Source of the DNA: a virus
Virus genome (UHGV): UHGV-0029496
Direction: 5' to 3' (one strand)
Length of the DNA: 24,034 bases
The translations under genes and the position numbers were made by a program. The notes under the pieces were generated by a model. It worked only from the letters and a program-made list of their open reading frames with translations, did no database searches and was not told the DNA's origin. Every line of letters starts with the position of its first letter. The stretch's first letter is position 1. Below are positions 3,421-22,742 of the stretch, piece after piece.

Positions 3421-3932
3421 GTAGACAAAACACCACGTAACAATGGGATTACCGAAGGGGTCATTAGTTCACCGGTGGCTCTTTGGTTCAACATAGGGAC
3501 GCCGACGTCAGCTGTGAATATCCCCTTTTCCTGGTTTATCGACTGCAACTCGTATACAACTGGCCCATCAGCCGGGTAGGTTAAATCTGTGCTGACGAAA
3601 CGGCGGAATATGAACTTAGGTAACACCGTATTGTCCGGCGGTATGCGGTCCATCTCATCGTCTAATTGGTTACCGATGTCAGGTAATGCGAACGACGCCC
3701 GCTGGTCCATGTCGTTATTGTTGGCGGCTCCTTTAGCCTCCATAGGGGTGGCTTCAAACGTAACGACTTCGCCGGTCTCTAACGTCGCCGTCAGGTCGGA
3801 AGTTCCGCGGACAAGCAAATACCGCTTCGAAAGAAGCGGGTGTACTATCTCCAGCGTCGTGTAGTCAATTTCGCCGTCGGGATTTGAGGCCAGCTTACGG
3901 CGATAGGCAGCTTCTACTGATTCCTGGCTCAT
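3417..3932 (-). CDS. Minor tail protein, gpL-like N-terminal domain
   Basis: 171 aa; position between M-like and K-like genes; loose pattern resemblance to lambda gpL N-terminus, but lacks the C-terminal Cys cluster. Confidence 0.4.
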   Translation of the reverse strand: MSQESVEAAYRRKLASNPDGEIDYTTLEIVHPLLSKRYLLVRGTSDLTATLETGEVVTFEATPMEAKGAANNNDMDQRASFALPDIGNQLDDEMDRIPPDNTVLPKFIFRRFVSTDLTYPADGPVVYELQSINQEKGIFTADVGVPMLNQRATGELMTPSVIPLLRGVLST

Positions 3933-8390: not shown

Positions 8391-8482
8391 TCTTTAATCC
8401 TTTGGTTAAGAGGTTACGGGTTAAGGTTGACGCGCCAGACGGGAACCACCCGCTTTTCGTGTGCGACACTAGGCGCAAACTT

Positions 8483-8516
8483 ATTCTAGCACACTACTTG
8501 CACACCCCAATATAAT
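8483..8516. promoter_or_regulatory. Divergent promoter candidates in the 164-bp gap between the chaperone gene (minus) and the plus-strand cassette
   Basis: Plus strand: perfect TATAAT at 8511-8516, about 40 nt before ATG 8555, weak -35. Minus strand: TAGAAT (plus 8483-8488) with TTGGGG 16 nt upstream. Confidence 0.25.
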
Positions 8517-8554
8517 AGGGTACTATTCACCTGTAACTTACTGAGGAAATAATT

Positions 8555-8881
8555 ATGCGTAAATTAGTATTAGCTCTGGGGTTTATGTCTTTTGCGGCTT
8601 TTGGGTCCTCGTGCGAACAGGCATTTAGTGAATCTGTTCTTATGACTTCTGGTGTGCTTGAGAAAGCCGACCCTACTATTGTAAAGGCATTTAGGGACTC
8701 TACCGTTCGCGAGTGTGAGGCCGCCGTGGAGGTTGGTAAATCGGGCCTACCCCCGCAAGCCGTAACATACACGGTAATACGTTCGGTAGAGAAAAACGGA
8801 GATGCGTTTTACAGCCTACTGACAGCCACCCGTCTGCAAATGGTAATGACGGGTTGGGCAGTAGGCGCAGAAAGTAAATAG
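8555..8881 (+). CDS. Small secreted protein or possible lipoprotein
   Basis: GAGGAA SD 6 nt before ATG; N-terminus MRKLVLALGFMSFAAFGSSC is a classic signal peptide with Cys at 20 (non-canonical lipobox); three Cys in total. Confidence 0.6.
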   Translation: MRKLVLALGFMSFAAFGSSCEQAFSESVLMTSGVLEKADPTIVKAFRDSTVRECEAAVEVGKSGLPPQAVTYTVIRSVEKNGDAFYSLLTATRLQMVMTGWAVGAESK

Positions 8882-8945
8882 TTGCCTTTATTTAAAGAAC
8901 GCACTGTGGCTAAATAGGACAAATCCTAAACACGAGGAAGTAAGT

Positions 8946-10463: not shown

Positions 10464-10483
10464 AAGGCCCTGAAAGGGGCCTT
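10464..10483 (+). terminator. GC-rich hairpin after the three-gene operon (weak terminator or attenuator)
   Basis: aaggccc-tgaaag-gggcctt, 7-bp stem, no clear U-tract. Confidence 0.3.
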
Positions 10484-10496
10484 ATCGCAACAGGAG

Positions 10497-10991
10497 ATGA
10501 TTATGGACTGGAATGAATTTTTCATATACGACTTAATTTCAGGAAGGATATTTAACAGAGTAACACGTTCCGGGAGGGCTAAGGCTGGAGAGGAGGCAGG
10601 TACGGTACAGCGAGACGGATATAGAAGGATATTTTTCAGGGGTAAATGGCACGCGGCGCACCGTATAGCTTGGGACTTAAACAATACTAACAATAAGCTA
10701 ACCTCGTCAGATCAAATAGACCATCTAGACCATAACCGAATAAACAATAGGCCGCTTAACTTAGCTAAAAAGTCCAATGCGGAAAACCATAAAAATATGT
10801 CAAAACAGCGTAATAATAAATCAGGAGTAACCGGGGTTTACTGGAACGCGAAAGAAAGGTTGTGGTACGCACAGATATTCAACAATAACGTAAAAACACA
10901 CATCGGGTGCTTTAAAACGCTACTAGATGCAGTTGCCGCAAGGAGAGTTGCTGAAAGAGATTTAGGGTTCCACGAGAACCACGGTAAATAG
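10497..10991 (+). CDS. HNH homing endonuclease with C-terminal AP2-like DNA-binding domain
   Basis: HNH core AHRIAWDL...IDHLDHNRINNRPLNL; C-terminal GVTGVYWNAKERLWYAQI...IGCFKTLLDAVAARR is AP2-like; Asn-rich and AT-rich codon usage unlike neighbours. AGGAG abuts ATG 10497, so ATG 10503 may be the true start. Confidence 0.75.
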   Translation: MIMDWNEFFIYDLISGRIFNRVTRSGRAKAGEEAGTVQRDGYRRIFFRGKWHAAHRIAWDLNNTNNKLTSSDQIDHLDHNRINNRPLNLAKKSNAENHKNMSKQRNNKSGVTGVYWNAKERLWYAQIFNNNVKTHIGCFKTLLDAVAARRVAERDLGFHENHGK

Positions 10992-10992
10992 T

Positions 10993-11016
10993 AAGGCCCC
11001 TTTCGGGGCCTTTTCC
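10993..11016. terminator. Bidirectional rho-independent terminator between convergent genes
   Basis: aaggcccc-tttc-ggggcctt followed by ttttcc on the plus strand; also U-rich on the minus strand. Sits between the plus HNH stop (10991) and the minus major tail stop (11017). Confidence 0.7.
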
Positions 11017-15101: not shown

Positions 15102-16154
15102 TTAAGCCCCGACACCAGTTACCAGGAAGGCAATCGGTACATGCTTACGCTCAACCACACGGTTCCAGTTGGAGGCGTTCGCCAGGTCCTGCCAGGAAGC
15201 AGAGCGGGCGATAGTCTCGGTGCCGTTACCGGTGATTACCGCACTGGTGAAGCTGTAACCAAACGGATGCAGCAACCAGGTCTTACGGGTCCACAGGGTT
15301 TCAACGCCACCACCGTTACCGCGAGACGCTTCGCGCTCGTATTCCAGCGGGTTAGACGGAGAACCTTCACCATAACCAATAGCGCCGTTGCCGAAGATAA
15401 TGGAGATGAACTTACGGCTAGGGCCAGTACCGACTACGGTCATGCTGTCGTCAACAATCACACGGTAGCCCTGGTAGGTGGCGAACATGGTGTTGTTATC
15501 GGCATCGCGGATGAAGTCGATAAGCTGCTGCTTACGCGCCTGTGCATAAACGAAACTGTGCATCGCGATAGCGCCCAGTACTTCACCGCCGTTACCCATC
15601 AGAGCATCGCCCATGGTCTGGGTAGCGTCGATGAATGCGCCCGCGTCGAAGCCCAGAGTCGCGGACACGTCTACTACCATGTCGTTCTGCACGTGGTAAG
15701 CATCGGTAGCGGTTACGTTGTTGTTGTACAGACCTAGCGCAGTAGCAATCAGACGGCGTTGTGCCTGACGCTGCCAGAAGTTATCCAGACGAGAAGCCAC
15801 GGATTGCAGCGGGTTCTGGCTGGTCAGTTCTACAGTCAGGTCAGCCTGTCCAAAGCCTTCGTTCAGGTAAGCTACACGAACGTCCATCTCACCGGTTTGC
15901 ACGTTACGAGGGGTGGCGATGTCCTGATATACGTCGTTCGAGTAGTTCGGCTCGATAGAGGTATCAATCGCTTTCCAGTACGGCAGAACAGCTTTGTTGG
16001 ACGGGCCGTTAGCGATAGCCGCTGCGTACGGAGTCGGGGTCAGAATACCGGACTGGAAGAACGCGGTTTTCTCTACCGGGTCTTCTGTCATGTAAGACAG
16101 AATGACCGATTCTTTACCAGTTACGATGTCGCCGATAGTAGTAATTGCCATCAT
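15102..16154 (-). CDS. Major capsid protein
   Basis: 350 aa directly after the scaffold gene, followed by decoration gene and terminator; GAGGAAAA SD; start overlaps scaffold stop (ATGATGA). Confidence 0.8.
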   Translation of the reverse strand: MMAITTIGDIVTGKESVILSYMTEDPVEKTAFFQSGILTPTPYAAAIANGPSNKAVLPYWKAIDTSIEPNYSNDVYQDIATPRNVQTGEMDVRVAYLNEGFGQADLTVELTSQNPLQSVASRLDNFWQRQAQRRLIATALGLYNNNVTATDAYHVQNDMVVDVSATLGFDAGAFIDATQTMGDALMGNGGEVLGAIAMHSFVYAQARKQQLIDFIRDADNNTMFATYQGYRVIVDDSMTVVGTGPSRKFISIIFGNGAIGYGEGSPSNPLEYEREASRGNGGGVETLWTRKTWLLHPFGYSFTSAVITGNGTETIARSASWQDLANASNWNRVVERKHVPIAFLVTGVGA

Positions 16155-16855
16155 TTTTTCCTCAGGGCTTTAAGTTGCCGTTCAAATTCGGCAGGGTTCG
16201 ATTCGTACAGAGCGATACGCTCCGCTTCACTCATGTCTTTAAACGCTGGTGCGGCCCCGCCACCTTTGCTACCGGAAGCCCCGCCGCCGGAAGCTGCATT
16301 TGCTTTAATCAAATGCGAAAACGCTTTGTGTTCGCGCAGATATTTGCGGAACTGTTCCGGGTCAGTCGTGATTACATTGCCATCTGCACCAACAAACTTA
16401 GTAACCACATCATCGCCTTCGAACTCAGTCTTAACGAACGGCGCAAGAATGTCTACTGCTTCCGGGGTGATAAAGTCGCCCGCGAAAGAGCCTAACACCG
16501 CTTTACGTTCGCTGCCGAGGATGCGCTCTGCCATTTTGGAGATGCGGCCATCTTTCTCGGCTAACACCGGGTCATACTGGCTACGAATCGTCTTTTCGAA
16601 CTCGTCCATCTTACCGGCGGCTTTTAACGCCTCCTGGTGCGCGCGCTGCCGTTCTTCTTCGGCCTCTTTTGCTTTACGAGCGGCTTCTTTCTTCTCCGCC
16701 AGCAATGCTTCCTGATTAGCCTTAAGCCCGGCAACTTCTTTCTCGATCAGCGCCTGAACTTCTTCGGCGGTGAACATTTTCGGCGCGTCACCGCCGCCAG
16801 ATTTATCTTCTGCCCCAGCTTCTTCCTGGAACGGATAACGTAAAAAACGATTCAT
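16151..16855 (-). CDS. Capsid scaffolding protein
   Basis: Charged Ala/Glu/Lys-rich coiled-coil sequence (EEVQALIEKEVAGLKANQEALLAEKKEAARKAKEAEEERQRAHQEALKAAGK) directly upstream of the capsid gene. Track start is TTG 16909; first ATG is 16855. Confidence 0.7.
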   Translation of the reverse strand: MNRFLRYPFQEEAGAEDKSGGGDAPKMFTAEEVQALIEKEVAGLKANQEALLAEKKEAARKAKEAEEERQRAHQEALKAAGKMDEFEKTIRSQYDPVLAEKDGRISKMAERILGSERKAVLGSFAGDFITPEAVDILAPFVKTEFEGDDVVTKFVGADGNVITTDPEQFRKYLREHKAFSHLIKANAASGGGASGSKGGGAAPAFKDMSEAERIALYESNPAEFERQLKALRKK

Positions 16856-16909
16856 AGTCAGTATGTCCCCTGGACTTTGGAACCCGGGCCACCCGGATTT
16901 ACATGTCAA

Positions 16910-16937: not shown

Positions 16938-17201
16938 CTATTCCAGAATATTCCTCACGTAATCCTGCAACATGAACACTTTCAGTCTCAGTTGCCGTAC
17001 GCATTCGGCGTTCTGAACATCAATAGCCAAATCCTCGTCTGTGTCGCTACTTGGCGCGGCCAGTTTGCACGGCGGCTGCATCATCGTCGTATCCGGGGAT
17101 GGAATTGGCGTTTGCGACGGCGCGGGACTTGAGCTGCACGCGCTCAGGGTCAAAAGTGCACACGCTGCGACCAGGCGTTTTAATGTACTTAACGACTTCA
17201 C
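16938..17201 (-). CDS. o-spanin (Rz1-like outer-membrane lipoprotein)
   Basis: GTG start with GAGGT SD; signal peptide plus perfect lipobox LSAC; Pro-rich mature part (CSSSPAPSQTPIPSPD); starts inside the Rz-like ORF in another frame and extends past its stop. Confidence 0.55.
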   Translation of the reverse strand: MKSLSTLKRLVAACALLTLSACSSSPAPSQTPIPSPDTTMMQPPCKLAAPSSDTDEDLAIDVQNAECVRQLRLKVFMLQDYVRNILE

Positions 17202-17433
17202 GGGTAATTACCTCTGATTTCGTCTTGCCTTCGTTGTCAGCGGCTGCGGCCTTTGATTCGTCCTGCTGCTGCCGTTGTGTTTTCTTCGCCAGCTCGGCCT
17301 GCGCTTTCTGCTGTTGCTGCGAAACGAGATTAGCCCGGCCTTCGTTCCACCCTTGAAGATAGTTGTATTTCCCGTAAGCGAAAACGAGAAACGCGGAACA
17401 TGCCGTGGTTATGATTGCTGCTTTAAGATTCAT
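17047..17433 (-). CDS. i-spanin (Rz-like)
   Basis: AAGGAG SD; N-terminal transmembrane segment AAIITTACSAFLVFAY followed by a Gln/Lys/Glu-rich coiled-coil region; overlapped by the lipoprotein ORF. Confidence 0.55.
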   Translation of the reverse strand: MNLKAAIITTACSAFLVFAYGKYNYLQGWNEGRANLVSQQQQKAQAELAKKTQRQQQDESKAAAADNEGKTKSEVITREVVKYIKTPGRSVCTFDPERVQLKSRAVANANSIPGYDDDAAAVQTGRAK

Positions 17434-17457
17434 GTTTCTCCTTTCTCGATAAGTAAA

Positions 17458-17477
17458 GCCCCGCCTTAAAGCGGGGC
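17458..17477 (-). promoter_or_regulatory. Hairpin in the 5' leader just upstream of the Rz-like RBS
   Basis: gccccgc-cttaaa-gcggggc (7-bp stem), followed on the minus strand by UUUACUUAUCG and then the SD. Confidence 0.35.
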
Positions 17478-17656
17478 GCTAGTCCTTATCATTTAAACAT
17501 AGAAACGGCGTAATCTCAGTAAACCAGTTACTTTTTACACAAGCAATAGACTATGGCCCTTCCGAACGCGTCAGCGACACTACACTCAGTGCTAACGCAC
17601 CGCTCCGTTCTCCTGCCGCGCCGCGGTCGCTTGTTCATACTTCACAAGCTCAGGTG

Positions 17657-17685
17657 GAGCTTATCATATTTTTAGTGAAAAGTCA
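17657..17685 (-). promoter_or_regulatory. Sigma70-like promoter candidate driving minus-strand genes
   Basis: Minus strand TTGACT (plus 17680-17685), 17-nt spacer, TGaTAAGCT extended -10 (plus 17657-17662). Confidence 0.3.
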
Positions 17686-17691
17686 ACTATT

Positions 17692-17710
17692 CGAATAGTT
17701 TATTCCAACA
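17692..17710 (-). repeat. Copy B of the repeated intergenic motif, 6 nt upstream of the TTGACT -35 candidate
   Basis: See copy A; core ttattccaacat at plus 17699-17710. Confidence 0.5.
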
Positions 17711-17744
17711 TTTACAATTGAGGGGAATAACTGGAATAATCACA

Positions 17745-17770
17745 GGCATTAAAAAGCCCCTTTCGGGGCT
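17745..17770 (-). terminator. Rho-independent terminator after the Ig-like gene
   Basis: aagcccc-tttc-ggggctt (7-bp stem) followed on the minus strand by UUUUAAUG; starts 6 nt after the stop codon. Confidence 0.7.
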
Positions 17771-17775
17771 TCAGT

Positions 17776-18237
17776 TTATTCCGGCTTAGTAACCTTCGCC
17801 GCTTTGCTTACGGCCTCTACACCATCGGCATCGGTGGCTTTAACGAAGTATTCACCGACTGCATTAACTGTCAGAGACAGAGCCTCTTCCGGGGCGTTTA
17901 CCACTTCCTTACCGTCTTTGTACCAGGTCAGAGCATACGGGGCTTTACCCGCCTTAACTTCGACAGTGATAGTCGCACTGCCGTCTGCCAGTTCAGCGTC
18001 TTTCGGCTGTACCGAGAAGTACACGTCACCTGCATTGACCAAATACGGAATCTCATAAACCATACCTGCCGCGGGTAACGCAATACCGGTCTTGTCAGCA
18101 AACGGCATATCGTCTACAGGCGAACCCAGTACACTTTCATCTTCAATAAACACCACGTTCTCACCAGAGCCAGACACACGGGCGTACTGGACTACGCGAC
18201 GCGACGGCACATCAGTTACTTTGAAAAAGCCCATCAT
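17776..18237 (-). CDS. Ig-like domain protein (minor capsid or decoration candidate)
   Basis: AAGGGG SD; ATGATG start overlaps the upstream stop; C-terminal Ig-type signature YALTWYKDGKEV. Confidence 0.5.
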   Translation of the reverse strand: MMGFFKVTDVPSRRVVQYARVSGSGENVVFIEDESVLGSPVDDMPFADKTGIALPAAGMVYEIPYLVNAGDVYFSVQPKDAELADGSATITVEVKAGKAPYALTWYKDGKEVVNAPEEALSLTVNAVGEYFVKATDADGVEAVSKAAKVTKPE

Positions 18238-19313
18238 TATTCCCCTTTCAGATAATCAGCAACACGTTTATCGAGTTCCGCCATCTGCTTAAGCGTGAGC
18301 GGATTCCCGAAACCATCTACAGATATTACGCGAAACTCTTCCGGCGATATACCGCTGTTGCGGAAAATCTTACCGCGGGTCGGTCCGAGTGCTTCATCCT
18401 GAAACCATGCTGGTTGTTGTTTCAGGAACTCGTAATAGGTTGTGTCCGCGCTTACCTGAGTACCCCCGTCTGCACCCTTAGCCGCACGTTTTGCACCTTT
18501 ATCGAGGAAGTCGAACTCGGAACTGATTACCGGGGCCGTGCACGATCGACAGTTCGGATGGGCTGGGGGCATTGGACCTTTACCGATTTCCCACGTCATC
18601 CCATCTCTGGCTCTGCAAATCGTACTGGTACGGCTGTCCAGCGTCGACACCCATTCGTACTTCTCGATGATGTCGTCGTTCTGGCGGTACGTCTCGTTAC
18701 GCGCTTCGTTGGACACGTGCGACAGCGCGGTGCGGATTACTGTAGCTGCGTTACGTTCAGAGATGTCGGCAAGCCCACCCGCACCAACAACATTCTTAAC
18801 AATCTGCCGTGTGGTTTGACCTTGTACAAAACCCATCTTAACACCGGTTACCAGGCGCGATACTTCTGTTTCCCCCCAGCCATCCATCAGCTTCGTGAAA
18901 TCAACAGGCTTGTCACTTAACGATAATGGCTGAAACTCGGCCGCGGCCCACACCTGTTCCGCGGTAGGTGTGACAAATTCCGCGTTAACGTTGGTGGTAA
19001 GTGTCTTTACGTTCCACTCGGCCTCATACGCCGCCAGTTCCTTAAGGTCTTCTGTCAGCTTCGTTTGCCAATCACCGGTAAGCCTGGTCAATGCTTCTTC
19101 CAGGTCGCGCAACAATTTATTCAGTCGCGCAGTGCTGCGCCCATCGTCGCCGAATAACAGCACCTGCCGTTTGATTTCATCTCGCATCTCCTGGATGAAC
19201 GGTGCGAGGTCTTTCACTTCACCGGATGCGGTGCGTTGTAGCCATATCTGGTGGCTGATTAGTGATGTCAGTAAGCTCATAGATAAACCCTGTGGCGCTA
19301 AAGTTAATAGCAT
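18237..19313 (-). CDS. Head morphogenesis protein (Mu gpF / SPP1 gp7-like)
   Basis: 358 aa immediately downstream of the portal gene; C-terminal conserved PMPPAHPNCRSC motif characteristic of Mu-F-like proteins. Confidence 0.8.
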   Translation of the reverse strand: MLLTLAPQGLSMSLLTSLISHQIWLQRTASGEVKDLAPFIQEMRDEIKRQVLLFGDDGRSTARLNKLLRDLEEALTRLTGDWQTKLTEDLKELAAYEAEWNVKTLTTNVNAEFVTPTAEQVWAAAEFQPLSLSDKPVDFTKLMDGWGETEVSRLVTGVKMGFVQGQTTRQIVKNVVGAGGLADISERNAATVIRTALSHVSNEARNETYRQNDDIIEKYEWVSTLDSRTSTICRARDGMTWEIGKGPMPPAHPNCRSCTAPVISSEFDFLDKGAKRAAKGADGGTQVSADTTYYEFLKQQPAWFQDEALGPTRGKIFRNSGISPEEFRVISVDGFGNPLTLKQMAELDKRVADYLKGE

Positions 19314-19349: not shown

Positions 19350-20831
19350 TTACTGCTGATTGGCGTCCTGTTGTTGCGCCGACTGCGGAATCTCTCCTGA
19401 TACCTGAGCAACAGCACCTAATGGTAGGGGTGCGTCCTCAATCGCAGTCTTAATCTCCTCGTCAGTCCAGTCAGTAACCCCCGCCTTACGCAATGCCGCG
19501 TAGTAAGCAGTAGCGGGTAGCAGGCCGGCGTTAATATCCGCCATCCACTGCGCTCGTTCGGGCGCGGTCATCGGTTGCAGGAAGAACTCCATATTCAGTT
19601 TGAACTCAATCTCTGTGCCTTCACGCAACCCTAACATCGCAGCTACCCAGCGCAGCGCATCGGTGTACGCCATGCTTACGTTACGCGCGATTGTCGCCAT
19701 AACAGACGTGTCAGCACCACGTTGCAGGCGGGCCGATTCAGCGGTGATTTGCTGTGTCGGGGTGATAAGCTGCGCGCCAATCTGGATGGCCTGATTCTCT
19801 TTATCCAGCATGTTCTGTTTGGCGAGGTTATTCTCTCCCGCCTGGACCAGAAACGCGTTGCCGCCGTACCCGATGTTATGACCCGAACGTGACCCCATGC
19901 GCACGCCGTGGGGGTTGGCTTCTTTCCACTGTTCTATGCCCATGTTCTCCCCCGGGGCGATGAACAGAGTAGGCTGGCCAACAACGAAGCTGGACTCCTC
20001 ATTGTCTGCGCTGTTGCGGAAATGCCCAATATTAAGCTCAGCCAACGGCAGTAGAGGCGCATCGTCGATGGTCGCGTCGTTGTTGCTCGCCCCGATAAAC
20101 GTGAACGGGATTTTGCCGCGTAACTGTTCCCCAAGTTCCGGGAATATTTCGATTACTTCATCCTGGGCACCACCTTCGGCATCGAATCTGTAAATGCGCT
20201 GGCGGTAGCGCCCGTCAATCAGGTCAAGGACGCGGTATTGTTCACCGAACTTGGTTTCGAACTCTGCACCGGGTTCTGAGTATTCCCATACCTCACGCAG
20301 CACGACCATCGTCACGCGGTTAACTGAACCGACGCGAGTCAGTCGCCAGTTGATGATGTTCTCTGCGGTGTAGAATGCGATGACCGGGTTTAATAATCCA
20401 GCATTCTGTTCGGCCGCCGTGGCCGCAGCAGTCTCCGGGGCATCAACCAGCAACCCACCGCGGCCTACAGAGTCAATCTCCATCAGCGTATCCTGCGCGT
20501 GCTGCCACAGACCAACACCGGAGCCGTCCGCATTGCGTAACAGGTACTCCAGTTCAGGCGGAATAATTTGTTCCGGGTCTTTGCGCATCACCGACCCCAC
20601 CATCCCCGCCAGGGTACGCTTAGTGAAGTTGTAGCAGATAGCACCGTTCTCGTATTCTTCCTGGCGCTGGGCCGCGTAGGTCGGGTCAGGCTCATTCTTT
20701 CCGACGTTGCGAAGATAGCGAATAATGTCGCCTTCCAGAGCGTGGCGTACCTTCTGCCATTTATCGAAGTGATGCAGCCATTCCCGGTGTTTTGTCTTAA
20801 CACCTTGATTCTGACCGTTCATAGTTAACAT
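19350..20831 (-). CDS. Portal protein
   Basis: 493 aa between the terminase/HNH genes and the Mu-F-like gene; GGAG SD 9 nt before ATG 20831; size and position typical. Confidence 0.8.
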   Translation of the reverse strand: MLTMNGQNQGVKTKHREWLHHFDKWQKVRHALEGDIIRYLRNVGKNEPDPTYAAQRQEEYENGAICYNFTKRTLAGMVGSVMRKDPEQIIPPELEYLLRNADGSGVGLWQHAQDTLMEIDSVGRGGLLVDAPETAAATAAEQNAGLLNPVIAFYTAENIINWRLTRVGSVNRVTMVVLREVWEYSEPGAEFETKFGEQYRVLDLIDGRYRQRIYRFDAEGGAQDEVIEIFPELGEQLRGKIPFTFIGASNNDATIDDAPLLPLAELNIGHFRNSADNEESSFVVGQPTLFIAPGENMGIEQWKEANPHGVRMGSRSGHNIGYGGNAFLVQAGENNLAKQNMLDKENQAIQIGAQLITPTQQITAESARLQRGADTSVMATIARNVSMAYTDALRWVAAMLGLREGTEIEFKLNMEFFLQPMTAPERAQWMADINAGLLPATAYYAALRKAGVTDWTDEEIKTAIEDAPLPLGAVAQVSGEIPQSAQQQDANQQ

Positions 20832-21506: not shown

Positions 21507-22742
21507 CTATAACGTGAATCTGACAGGAGTGTTGATAACAGGGCGGACAACAGGGAACAACCTATGCATACAATAACCTAAACTGTCGTTCCAGTCGTCG
21601 ATAGCCGGGTGAGTTTTAAACTTCTCCGGTTCACCATTATCGTTATACCCCTGCGTCTCCAGTGACTGCGTCAATTTAGGGCATTTTGAAGTGTTAACCC
21701 TCAAACGGCTATGTGACAAAAGAGCGTTAACCGCGTTTATTCTGTCTTTAACGAATGGGTTCTTACTCGGAGCGTTAACACGTAAGCCGGCCTTTTCGAT
21801 GATACCTATGTCGGATAACGATGCGTTAGTGTGGCCTGAGCGACCAGAGGCGTCAGGGTAAACCGTAACCGTATGGCCCGGATACCGTATCCTGACATTA
21901 TTGACGAAGTCGTCGGTATTATGGCTGACAAACTCATCAACAACCGTCGGGTTGCCGTCTTCGATAATGCTCACGGTGGCGCAACAGCCGCCGATGTTAA
22001 AGTCCAACCCTATGTGCAGAGCGTCTCCGTTCTGCAAGGTGCGAGTGGAGTCATGTGTGTTTCGTTTGAAATAGTGATACACCTTATTGGCCGTCAAACT
22101 GACAAATTCACCGTTGATATACATATCAGCCAAAGCCGCGTCGTAGTTCCTTCGTATCTGCTCGACGTAGCCGTCAGGTAAATATGGGTTCGACAATGTA
22201 GACGCCTTAATCAGTTCCGTAGAACTGTCAGCGTTAGTAACCCAATAGTCATACACAAATCCGGAGAATCCCTGGTCGGGCGTAGTCACGGCGGCAATAC
22301 TGTTCCCGCCCCTACATGGCTGTCGGGTGCGCTCTGAAATTTTACGCCACACCAGGGACGCCTGTTCTTTAGTAAGAACGTCAAGTTCATCGGCGACAGA
22401 ATGGGCTACTTCAAAAGCGATTAGACGGTTCGGGTTGTCATAGGACCTGAAAAACATAGTACCGTACCCCTTAACATGGATACTGTATTCCGATTTGTTG
22501 AGGTCATACTTAAGCCCCATCATATTCAGGTCATCAACCACACCAGGGATGGCGCGCAGCTTCAACAGGTCATATGTAGGCATGGTGTACAGGGTGTTTA
22601 TCCCGCGCTCGCGCAACATGAGATACAGGAGGCGCATAGTGGCCGCGCGGGACTTGCCCGCCCCCAGTCCAGCGACAATAGCTGGATGTGTCTTTGTACT
22701 GAATACAAAGTCCTGTTGGGGTTCTGTTAATGGAATATCCAT
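21507..22742 (-). CDS. Terminase large subunit
   Basis: Walker A GLGAGKS near the N-terminus, Walker-B-like LIAFEVAHSVADE, C-terminal Asp-rich nuclease-like region; TAATG overlap with the upstream small ORF. Confidence 0.85.
   Translation of the reverse strand: MDIPLTEPQQDFVFSTKTHPAIVAGLGAGKSRAATMRLLYLMLRERGINTLYTMPTYDLLKLRAIPGVVDDLNMMGLKYDLNKSEYSIHVKGYGTMFFRSYDNPNRLIAFEVAHSVADELDVLTKEQASLVWRKISERTRQPCRGGNSIAAVTTPDQGFSGFVYDYWVTNADSSTELIKASTLSNPYLPDGYVEQIRRNYDAALADMYINGEFVSLTANKVYHYFKRNTHDSTRTLQNGDALHIGLDFNIGGCCATVSIIEDGNPTVVDEFVSHNTDDFVNNVRIRYPGHTVTVYPDASGRSGHTNASLSDIGIIEKAGLRVNAPSKNPFVKDRINAVNALLSHSRLRVNTSKCPKLTQSLETQGYNDNGEPEKFKTHPAIDDWNDSLGYCMHRLFPVVRPVINTPVRFTL

Follow-up and report, generated by a model that had tools for sequence, protein, structure and literature searches.

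A conserved two-hairpin RNA downstream of a predicted promoter lies in the gap before the Rz, scaffold and capsid genes of Guernseyvirinae phages

Introduction

Why would a phage with a tightly packed genome keep about 340 bp of apparently gene-free DNA among its head genes? The question is raised by the virus genome UHGV-0029496, which we analysed as one stretch of 24,034 nucleotides (hereafter the window) and which belongs to a Kagunavirus-like siphophage of the subfamily Guernseyvirinae. At most junctions around this locus, neighbouring genes overlap by 1-4 nt, yet 342 bp (positions 17434-17775) separate the stop codon of a gene for a 153-aa Ig-like protein (17776) from the ATG of the gene for the Rz i-spanin (17433). 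A first-pass annotation, made from the letters of the window, described this gap as non-coding, listed in it a terminator, a promoter, repeats and a hairpin, and proposed that it could encode a small RNA or a structured 5' leader that controls the timing of capsid gene expression. In public records, the region is left without a feature, is given a 36-aa hypothetical protein or has a tRNA-Ser placed nearby on the opposite strand. In the genome papers on Guernseyvirinae, promoters and terminators are software-predicted only, and our literature search found neither a description of the element reported below nor transcript mapping for these phages. Here, reading the elements of the gap on the minus (coding) strand, we describe a conserved two-hairpin RNA, supported by covariation, that follows a predicted promoter and very probably constitutes a functional, promoter-coupled structured leader.

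Results

A covarying two-hairpin RNA lies in the gap

The locus occurs in three versions, hereafter Kaguna, Jersey and Cornell types, and many Kagunaviruses carry a second copy of part of it besides the main one (both described below). Comparison of these sequences revealed a 109-nt structured RNA core made of a short hairpin, P1, a long irregular hairpin, P2-P4, and a conserved 3' tail (Table 1). The P2-P4 helix counts about 22 bp and is interrupted by internal loops, and the core has a purine-rich internal loop with possible tandem G-A pairs. Pairing is kept while the sequence changes: the apical stem occurs as GUGC/GCAC, GGAC/GUCC, GGGC/GCCC or GUGCC/GGCAC, and single pairs appear in three Watson-Crick forms (C-G, U-A and A-U in the lower helix; U-A, G-C and A-U in the middle helix). 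In a MAFFT alignment of 26 variants, not fitted to the structure, 91% of the cells are paired and 36 cells carry a double change, versus 13±3 in shuffles and at most 18 with the partners slid. A model-fitted alignment of 35 distinct sequences, including Jersey types, has 94.9% of its cells paired, changes on both sides in 15 of the 28 pairs, and 127 double-change cells versus 35±6 in shuffles and at most 17 when slid; since this alignment is biased towards the model and its sequences are related, the figures are counts rather than probabilities, and the unfitted alignment agrees with them. About 10% of the paired cells are G-U and would be A-C mismatches on the other strand, so that the fold is assigned to the gene-sense strand. 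The covariance model built from these data (R1) finds a single copy in the window, with 125 bits, and the single-sequence minimum free energy (MFE) fold of the core is the comparative structure. An alternative pairing of the repeated GCUUGUG with the 3' arm of P1 was dropped, second copies being devoid of it.

Sequence is constrained in unpaired positions as well. The motifs GAGUGUAG, GGAGCG and UUCGGAAGGGCC are unpaired and invariant. The apical loop varies freely among copies (GUAA, GUUA, GUCA, AUUA and CUCG), which argues that it is not a boxB-like recognition loop. We conclude that the core is a conserved two-hairpin RNA. Covariance analysis across homologous regions, named by the first-pass annotation as a check of its proposal, thus returned compensatory changes; the proposed small RNA or structured 5' leader finds its counterpart in this promoter-proximal covarying RNA, although the core itself did not figure among the features listed at the time.

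Greater conservation in the gap than in its flanking genes

With 1.3 kb around the gap as query, 194 phage records from Escherichia Kagunavirus and Salmonella Jerseyvirus matched at 80-95% identity, and the gap alone matched 181 records, 180 of them at 90-99%. Segment by segment, in loci that carry the whole region in its Kaguna-type version, conservation of the gap exceeds that of the flanking genes (Table 1). The region, on whose presence in relatives the first-pass annotation had made its proposal depend, is hence kept in 181 records, with the parts of the leader better conserved than the neighbouring coding sequences.

The other versions extend this distribution. In the phage collection, 181 records have the Kaguna type at this locus, 269 the f18SE/Jersey type and 15 the Cornell type, the last including Enterobacter phiEap-2 and Hafnia TS33; set against the 464 records with a capsid gene at least 80% identical, these numbers indicate that essentially every sequenced member of Guernseyvirinae has one version of the locus. 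R1 recovers the diverged Jerseyvirus versions (38-44 bits), in which the stems are built from other sequences: UACGCU/AGCGUA in P1, UCGCG/CGCGA in P3, and GGCGU/ACGCC or GGCGC/GCGCC in P4. The Cornell type is rearranged and missed by R1; it keeps the extended -10 promoter, a 5' hairpin (UUCGU/ACGAA), a covarying apical stem and the motif ACCGCG-CGGAAGGGYCG. Outside Guernseyvirinae-like contigs, the RNA was not found in IMG/VR pattern scans screened with R1, the other hits being chance matches in GC-rich DNA, and a scan of JGI/ENA metagenomes followed by R1 gave only Guernseyvirinae-like contigs among the matches listed.

Could the gap have been homogenised, without any functional cause, by recombination or gene conversion near an insertion hot spot? 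Two observations fit such a history: opposite-strand genes have been inserted at the terminator/repeat boundary in many relatives, and the core of the window carries a variant that other phages have at their second locus. Homogenisation, however, does not produce compensatory pairs, nor the same fold from the different Jersey sequences, and a 179-aa ORF inserted at the boundary has no Pfam endonuclease domain. This explanation, already disfavoured by the covariation, is highly improbable. A homing endonuclease as the cause of the conservation was likewise rejected, the inserted 179-aa ORF having no Pfam domain.

The gap holds no convincing gene

Four ORFs of at least 20 aa are found in the gap (36 and 20 aa on the minus strand, 40 and 23 aa on the plus strand), and none of them, including the sense 36-aa and the antisense 40-aa ORFs, is conserved across the family, in agreement with the first-pass annotation, which had seen no convincing ORF in this otherwise tightly packed genome. 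The 36-aa ORF deserves separate consideration, as the gap might encode an Arg- and Cys-rich peptide (17638-17528) and owe its conservation to that gene. Most type-A main-locus copies have it intact, and records such as those of Shashou and TU03 annotate it. It nevertheless has no ATG in the type C, Jersey and Cornell versions, stops after 17-22 codons in second copies and is frameshifted in one main-locus variant; its annotated ribosome-binding site (RBS) is only 3 nt; and the differences between types are pairwise compensatory in the RNA yet replace several residues of the peptide. We regard a coding origin of the conservation as extremely improbable.

ARAGORN found no tRNA or tmRNA in the window or in 10 related loci. 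In some Jerseyvirus records a "tRNA-Ser" is annotated on the opposite strand, where it covers the terminator and the last part of the Ig-like gene (L244 572-650, that is NC_073198 11305-11383); it is probably a false call.

The RNA follows a predicted extended -10 promoter

Directly upstream of the core, the sequence TTGACT-17-TGaTAAGCT is a predicted sigma-70 promoter of the extended -10 class, with its -35 hexamer TTGACT at 17686-17681, a 17-nt spacer, TG at 17666-17665 and the -10 hexamer TAAGCT at 17663-17658. It thereby has all the features of this class, namely the -35, the 17-bp spacer, TGn and positions T1, A2 and T6 of the -10, and -35, spacing, TGn and T1/A2/T6 are conserved in Kaguna, Jersey and Cornell types. 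The equivalent promoters read TAGACT-17-TGtTACGCT in Jersey types and TGaTAACCT in Cornell types. A generic promoter scan misses the site: TAAGCT matches TATAAT at 3/6 positions. The first-pass annotation had proposed this very promoter, and the predicted site is indeed present, but the coordinates given for it, 17657-17685, are off by one. We also considered the -10-like hexamer at the transcript start (TGAGCT/TACGCT) as a sigma-dependent pause signal, a reading that stays speculative since Cornell types do not keep it.

From 5' to 3', the gap therefore reads as a transcription-control cassette in which a putative terminator is followed by repeats and a palindrome, the extended -10 promoter and a leader of about 215-217 nt, a length close to the 215 nt of the first-pass annotation.

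A different promoter-like element occurs elsewhere in the genome. An exact copy of TGAATAGTACCCTATTAT is found at 8512-8529 (minus strand), inside a 556-bp gap (8391-8945), and this sequence is the repeated "phage promoter" of a Kagunavirus genome paper (PMC9825357). The inverted repeat AATAG-N4-CTATT is present at no fewer than seven intergenic positions of phage Shashou, mostly some 35 nt ahead of a start codon. TGAATAGTACCCTATTAT and AATAG-N4-CTATT probably represent a second class of promoter or operator.

The predicted promoter and the RNA are duplicated as one portable module

In many Kagunaviruses, a second copy of the segment corresponding to window positions 17686-17544 lies about 10.6 kb upstream, with 79-95% identity. 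The copies are similar exactly from the -35 hexamer onwards and as far as GUCUAUUG, and the flanks are unrelated. At least 17 IMG/VR contigs hold both copies; the window ends before the expected position of its own second copy. In Shashou, the second copy (37536-37646) occupies the divergent region between a leftward helix-turn-helix (HTH) gene and the first rightward early gene. The rightward unit that follows spans about 31 kb, with small early genes, holin and endolysin, nin-like genes, terminase, portal and head morphogenesis genes, then a terminator and the main copy of the module, and finally Rz, scaffold, capsid and tail genes; intrinsic terminators are annotated at five or more places along it. 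Judging from these boundaries, promoter and RNA make up a single portable module that was duplicated as a whole. Its presence at the head of the early operon too points to a general function in transcription units rather than to a capsid-specific timer.

Three further observations concern the copies. The core of the window has a P3/P4 variant (GUGC/GCAC, GUGUC) that is seen at the second locus elsewhere (L024 1609-1718, L044 6742-6850), which suggests gene conversion between the two loci of the module. In type D, the core of the second copy and its downstream hairpin are separated by a (CTCA)n microsatellite whose length varies (L046 about 3680-3700, L048 and L057). In Jerseyvirus f18SE, an early promoter TTGACA-17-GTAAGT (L064 40060-39760, minus strand) heads a GC-rich leader, GCGGGU...CCGC-CCUAA-GCGG...ACCCGC, followed by a terminator-like hairpin; this leader may stand in for the Kagunavirus second copy, either as a degenerate relative or as an unrelated element.

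Spacer and stem-loop before the ribosome-binding site

Between the core and Rz, the leader comprises an AU-rich spacer and a two-tier stem-loop adjoining the RBS. The spacer is not conserved between the Kaguna, Jersey and second-copy versions, across which the core is conserved. A third structured domain considered there (UAGUCU/AGAUUA) was rejected, as Jersey variants do not keep it, and no spacer structure is supported. In the stem-loop, an upper GC stem, GCCCCGCU-UUAA-GGCGGGGC (17477-17458), ends 24 nt before the Rz ATG, and a lower helix pairs GAUAAG (17490-17485) with CUUAUC (17453-17448). The upper hairpin is the leader hairpin that the first-pass annotation had placed against the downstream RBS, and is confirmed here as one tier of a larger structure. 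With its tail UUUACUUAU, it also ranks first among the terminator-like sites of the minus strand. In Jersey types, the two-tier architecture recurs in another sequence, UAUACG...GCCCGGC-GUAA-GCCGGGC...CGUAUA, with a poor U-tract. Folded as a whole, the leader has a z of -2.2 against shuffles.

This arrangement could be that of a stand-alone, trans-acting small RNA (sRNA) of about 195 nt, terminated by the 17477-17458 hairpin and working by base pairing on host or phage targets or by protein sequestration. It would have its own promoter and, in the window phage, a terminator-like hairpin with a tail; the whole unit is strongly conserved, which speaks for a discrete gene product; and the near-invariant, AU-rich stretch of 66 nt resembles the seed/Hfq region of enterobacterial sRNAs. 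However, no other promoter for Rz, scaffold and capsid is evident in the 24 nt between hairpin and ATG, so that substantial read-through would be required. In addition, the U-tract is poor in Jersey types and second copies, the spacer varies between versions while the core is kept, and BLAST of 5,426 complete E. coli genomes gave no related sequence, although short targets could escape such a search. An sRNA thus appears quite unlikely.

The same structures could instead serve processing or stability, P1 and the following helices protecting the late mRNA from 5'-end-dependent decay, or RNase III sites, comparable to those of T7 or of the lambda N leader, releasing a translatable Rz-scaffold-capsid mRNA. 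P1 sits at the very 5' end, the P2-P4 helix is long and interrupted, the two-tier stem-loop is kept in Jersey types despite its different sequence, and in the MFE model the spacer after the Shine-Dalgarno is partly paired with GUUUCU. Moreover, the stem-loop next to the RBS has the look of an RNase III substrate, and the RNase III hairpins of T7 and lambda are likewise long interrupted helices just upstream of an RBS in a phage transcript. On the other side, hairpins of this kind can usually do without invariant unpaired nucleotides and without 98-99% conservation across 110 nt, and the duplicated unit consists of promoter and core, without the RBS stem-loop. To our knowledge, the RNase III leader sites described so far are not promoter-coupled duplicated units and do not have such primary-sequence conservation. 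We consider a role limited to processing or stability unlikely.

Terminator, repeats and palindrome upstream of the promoter

The strong terminator listed by the first-pass annotation is present on the minus strand. This intrinsic terminator, T1, has a GC stem of 5-7 bp, a GAAA loop and UUUUU, and would close the unit formed by the terminase, portal, head morphogenesis and Ig-like genes. A terminator scan lists only its plus-strand reading (17754-17771), the minus stem absorbing two U, and the position is annotated as a terminator in Shashou. The T1 hairpin belongs to a repeat family (D4) with three copies in the window, at 10988, 17748 and 19317; the hairpin is thus reused after the portal gene and near 10988. 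The first-pass annotation had also counted a copy of a repeated 19-bp motif in the gap: the copy is there, but it is the T1 hairpin and not a separate element, and was therefore counted twice.

The tandem GAATAA repeats of that annotation are found as GGAATAA at 17724-17730 and 17733-17739 on the plus strand. On the minus strand, the layout is TTATTCC-N2-TTATTCC (17739-17724), N17, an inverted GGAATAA (17706-17700), N14 and the -35. GGAATAA is over-represented, with 9 occurrences in the window versus 2.9±1.9 expected, and the spacing TATTCC-N3-TATTCC-N17-GGAATA-N14-(-35) is common to Kaguna, Jersey and Cornell types, in which the sequence between repeats differs. Two readings fit. The heptamers are candidate binding sites for a regulator of the late promoter, in agreement with the weak -35 of Jersey and Cornell types; alternatively, they provide on the plus strand the -10 region of a promoter-like, divergent TTTACA-18-TGgAATAAT, in agreement with the insertion of opposite-strand genes exactly at the heptamers in relatives. 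This plus-strand site faces a bidirectional terminator. The 14-bp palindrome next to the -35, which could be an operator or an UP-like element, is not present in the second copies of the module.

The terminator/repeat boundary is a hot spot for the insertion of opposite-strand genes in relatives, the window itself being without an insert. The inserts include the 179-aa ORF without Pfam domain, a PAPS reductase gene and a 70-aa ORF (L004 893-1432, L123 1401-2255, L245 104-316 and L248 1-300). Elsewhere in the window, an inverted pair of GC hairpins (10464-10484 and 10992-11012, 95% complementary) flanks a plus-strand ORF (10497-10991), and the whole looks like a small opposite-strand gene cassette between terminators.

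Downstream of the gap, the first gene is not that of the capsid, to which the first-pass annotation had linked the leader, but the Rz/Rz1 spanin gene. The spanin genes (17047-17433) lie amid head genes; in relatives, holin and endolysin are about 12 kb away.

Table 1 Features of the gap and of the neighbouring genes in the window (identities are to the window, in loci carrying the whole region in its Kaguna-type version)
Feature	Position	Strand	Identity	Basis	Remarks
Structured RNA core, 109 nt	17652-17544	minus	about 90%	covariance model R1, covariation, MFE	differences occur as compensating pairs
P1 hairpin, 6 bp	17649-17629	minus			GCUUGU / loop GAAGUAUGA / ACAAGC; starts 3 nt after predicted +1
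Long irregular hairpin P2a-P2b-P2c-P3-P4, 65 nt	17626-17562	minus			apical P4 17602-17587
Conserved 3' tail	17567-17544	minus			UUCGGAAGGGCC...GUCUAUUG
Predicted extended -10 sigma-70-type promoter	17686-17658	minus	94%	sequence	predicted +1 about 17651/17650
AU-rich leader spacer	17478-17543	minus	99%		99% among Kaguna-type main-locus copies; motifs GCCGU and GUUUCUAU recur in other copy types
Two-tier stem-loop adjoining RBS	17448-17490	minus	98% (hairpin and RBS)	MFE of leader	
Shine-Dalgarno AAGGAG and Rz ATG	17443-17438 and 17433-17431	minus			start of first gene served by leader
Palindrome, 14 bp, perfect, adjoining -35	17686-17699				ACTATTCGAATAGT; kept in Kaguna-type main-locus copies
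Heptamer repeats TTATTCC/GGAATAA	17700-17739				candidate regulator-binding sites; also plus-strand promoter-like TTTACA-18-TGgAATAAT (17711-17740)
Putative intrinsic terminator T1	17751-17771	minus		sequence	GCCCC-GAAA-GGGGC + UUUUU (17769-17751)
36-aa ORF MNKRPRRGRR...	17528-17638	minus			hypothetical protein in some GenBank records
Terminase large subunit	21507-22742	minus			first in transcription order
Portal	19350-20831	minus			after terminase
Head morphogenesis protein	18237-19313	minus			after portal
153-aa Ig-like protein	17776-18237	minus	88% (Ig-like and Rz coding sequences)		directly before gap
Rz i-spanin with embedded Rz1	17047-17433	minus	88% (Ig-like and Rz coding sequences)		directly after gap
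Scaffold	16151-16909	minus			after Rz/Rz1
Major capsid protein	15102-16154	minus			after scaffold; remaining head and tail genes next

Discussion

What does the RNA do? The gap contains a new RNA family of a familiar general kind, the promoter-proximal structured leader. By analogy with known systems, we tentatively favour a cis-acting elongation or antitermination leader, like HK022 putL/putR but unrelated to them, with a probability of roughly 35%. In this mechanism, T1 would stop or attenuate transcripts coming from the terminase, portal and head morphogenesis genes, and the extended -10 sigma-70 promoter, preceded by its conserved repeats, would restart transcription at about 17651. The first 109 nt would fold during emergence into the P1 and P2-P4 RNA with its invariant unpaired motifs, and the spacer and two-tier stem-loop would lead into Rz/Rz1, scaffold, major capsid and the rest of the structural operon. 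The nascent RNA would act in cis on its own RNA polymerase, by processive antitermination or anti-pausing, so that polymerases from the main copy, and from the Kagunavirus early copy, would pass the leader stem-loop and the internal terminators of the long rightward units. A polymerase-modifying RNA is suggested by the fusion to a promoter, the joint duplication, the position of the copies at the heads of terminator-bearing units, the invariant unpaired nucleotides and the lack of a recognisable Q- or N-like protein: a PHROGs scan of 20 proteins of one genome, Shashou (the leftward HTH protein and 19 from the early operon), matched no family of Q- or N-type antiterminators. The capsid gene of the window is followed by a terminator (15086-15065), and the distance to the next gene is too short to accommodate a promoter; promoter-like sites are no more frequent than in shuffles.

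Processive antitermination by RNA alone has precedents in put (PMC9378689) and in EAR and canT (PMC11658703). As in HK022 (PMC9378689), the element is a promoter-proximal nascent RNA of two stem-loops, with two copies per genome heading long, terminator-containing operons, no recognisable antiterminator protein and the sigma-70 polymerase of the host. The placement is also put-like, the core starting at the predicted +1 and the second copy heading the rightward early operon of Kagunaviruses. By contrast, the core measures about 105 nt versus about 70 nt for put, and it is found in virulent siphophages rather than lambdoid phages, with one copy amid morphogenesis genes. HK022 put suppresses pausing and termination in cis, with no protein factor, through the beta' zinc-binding domain; the module may act in a comparable way. 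EAR of the B. subtilis eps operon, canT of Tn916 and conAn2 of pLS20 (PMC11658703) are likewise structured RNAs acting in cis at the head of long operons with internal terminators; they differ in their unrelated sequence, Gram-positive hosts, length of 120-450 nt and experimentally established function, the present module being known from its sequence. For canT, too, a small ORF had been annotated in error (PMC11658703): orf5 overlaps canT as the probably spurious 36-aa ORF overlaps the core here. No family of Rfam 15 was found with the gap at a relaxed threshold (best wcaG, 18 bits versus a gathering threshold of 42, E = 0.69), a negative that is uninformative on put membership since Rfam has no put family.

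The late region of lambda (PR'-qut-6S RNA-tR'-lysis) offers another comparison. Its order of a constitutive-looking promoter, a leader of about 190-200 nt ending in a terminator-like hairpin, and a lysis gene directly downstream is seen in the window version, where about 193 nt lead to the hairpin at 17458 and Rz/Rz1 follows; in Jersey-type main-locus copies and Kagunavirus second copies, the U-tract is weak and the hairpin is not terminator-like. In both cases, nin-like genes lie upstream in the genome. Unlike in lambda, the Shashou proteins scanned gave no Q homologue, and what is conserved is the fold of an RNA rather than a DNA site bound by Q. Nor does the leader resemble an N/nut system, as inspection gave no convincing boxA, the best candidate, UGCUUGUGUAAAA, matching at 9/13 positions by eye and being absent from other copy types.

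The core might still be a platform for a protein, either as a nut-like site for an unrecognised antiterminator or as a translational operator for the first genes. The invariant unpaired motifs and the purine-rich internal loop would suit such a role, the motif CGGAAGGGYCGAG survives even in the rearranged Cornell-type leaders, and many small, uncharacterised early proteins are available as candidate partners; yet the Shashou proteins tested include no N- or Q-like family, the apical loop is free to vary, and inspection gave no convincing boxA. We judge a protein platform to be rather improbable.

Several points weigh against the cis-acting antitermination leader. The stability of the core is ordinary compared with shuffles (z = -0.75), so that the evidence for its fold is comparative, not thermodynamic. 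It has no sequence or structure homology to putL/putR, R1 being silent in the HK022 immunity region (L045), and on this ground is not a member of the put family. In f18SE, only the main copy was detected and the early leader is different. The U-tract of the stem-loop is decent only in the Kaguna-type main copy and weak in Jersey types and second copies, so that the module does not include, as a conserved part, a dedicated terminator to overcome. A put-like model offers no explanation for the 99% identity of the spacer, which better fits a base-pairing or protein-binding function and keeps the sRNA and protein-binding readings alive. The transcript start, termination at the stem-loop and the effect on polymerase are themselves predictions from sequence, and the internal terminators may simply be leaky. 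Somewhat more doubtful still is the stronger proposal that the module is a factor-independent processive antiterminator, which would be the first put-like system in virulent non-lambdoid phages, would bind as nascent 105-nt RNA to the RNA polymerase of E. coli or Salmonella, would confer resistance to terminators and Rho over tens of kb, and would travel as a portable cassette copied between early and late units.

Whatever its mode of action, the element bears on annotation, the 36-aa "hypothetical protein" and the "tRNA-Ser" of records covering this gap being probably not genes. Guernseyvirinae (Kagunavirus, Jerseyvirus and Cornellvirus) are among the phages most often isolated for therapy against E. 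coli K1, urinary tract infections and Salmonella, with more than 460 sequenced genomes in the collection. Hardly any work has addressed the gene-expression programme of these phages, which use the host RNA polymerase only; the RNA fold, conserved and joined to the promoters of the main units, offers a concrete entry point into this programme. If the polymerase-modifying function holds true, the module would be the second natural enterobacterial RNA to reprogramme RNA polymerase without the help of a protein, directly testable with E. coli tools and usable as a compact genetic part.

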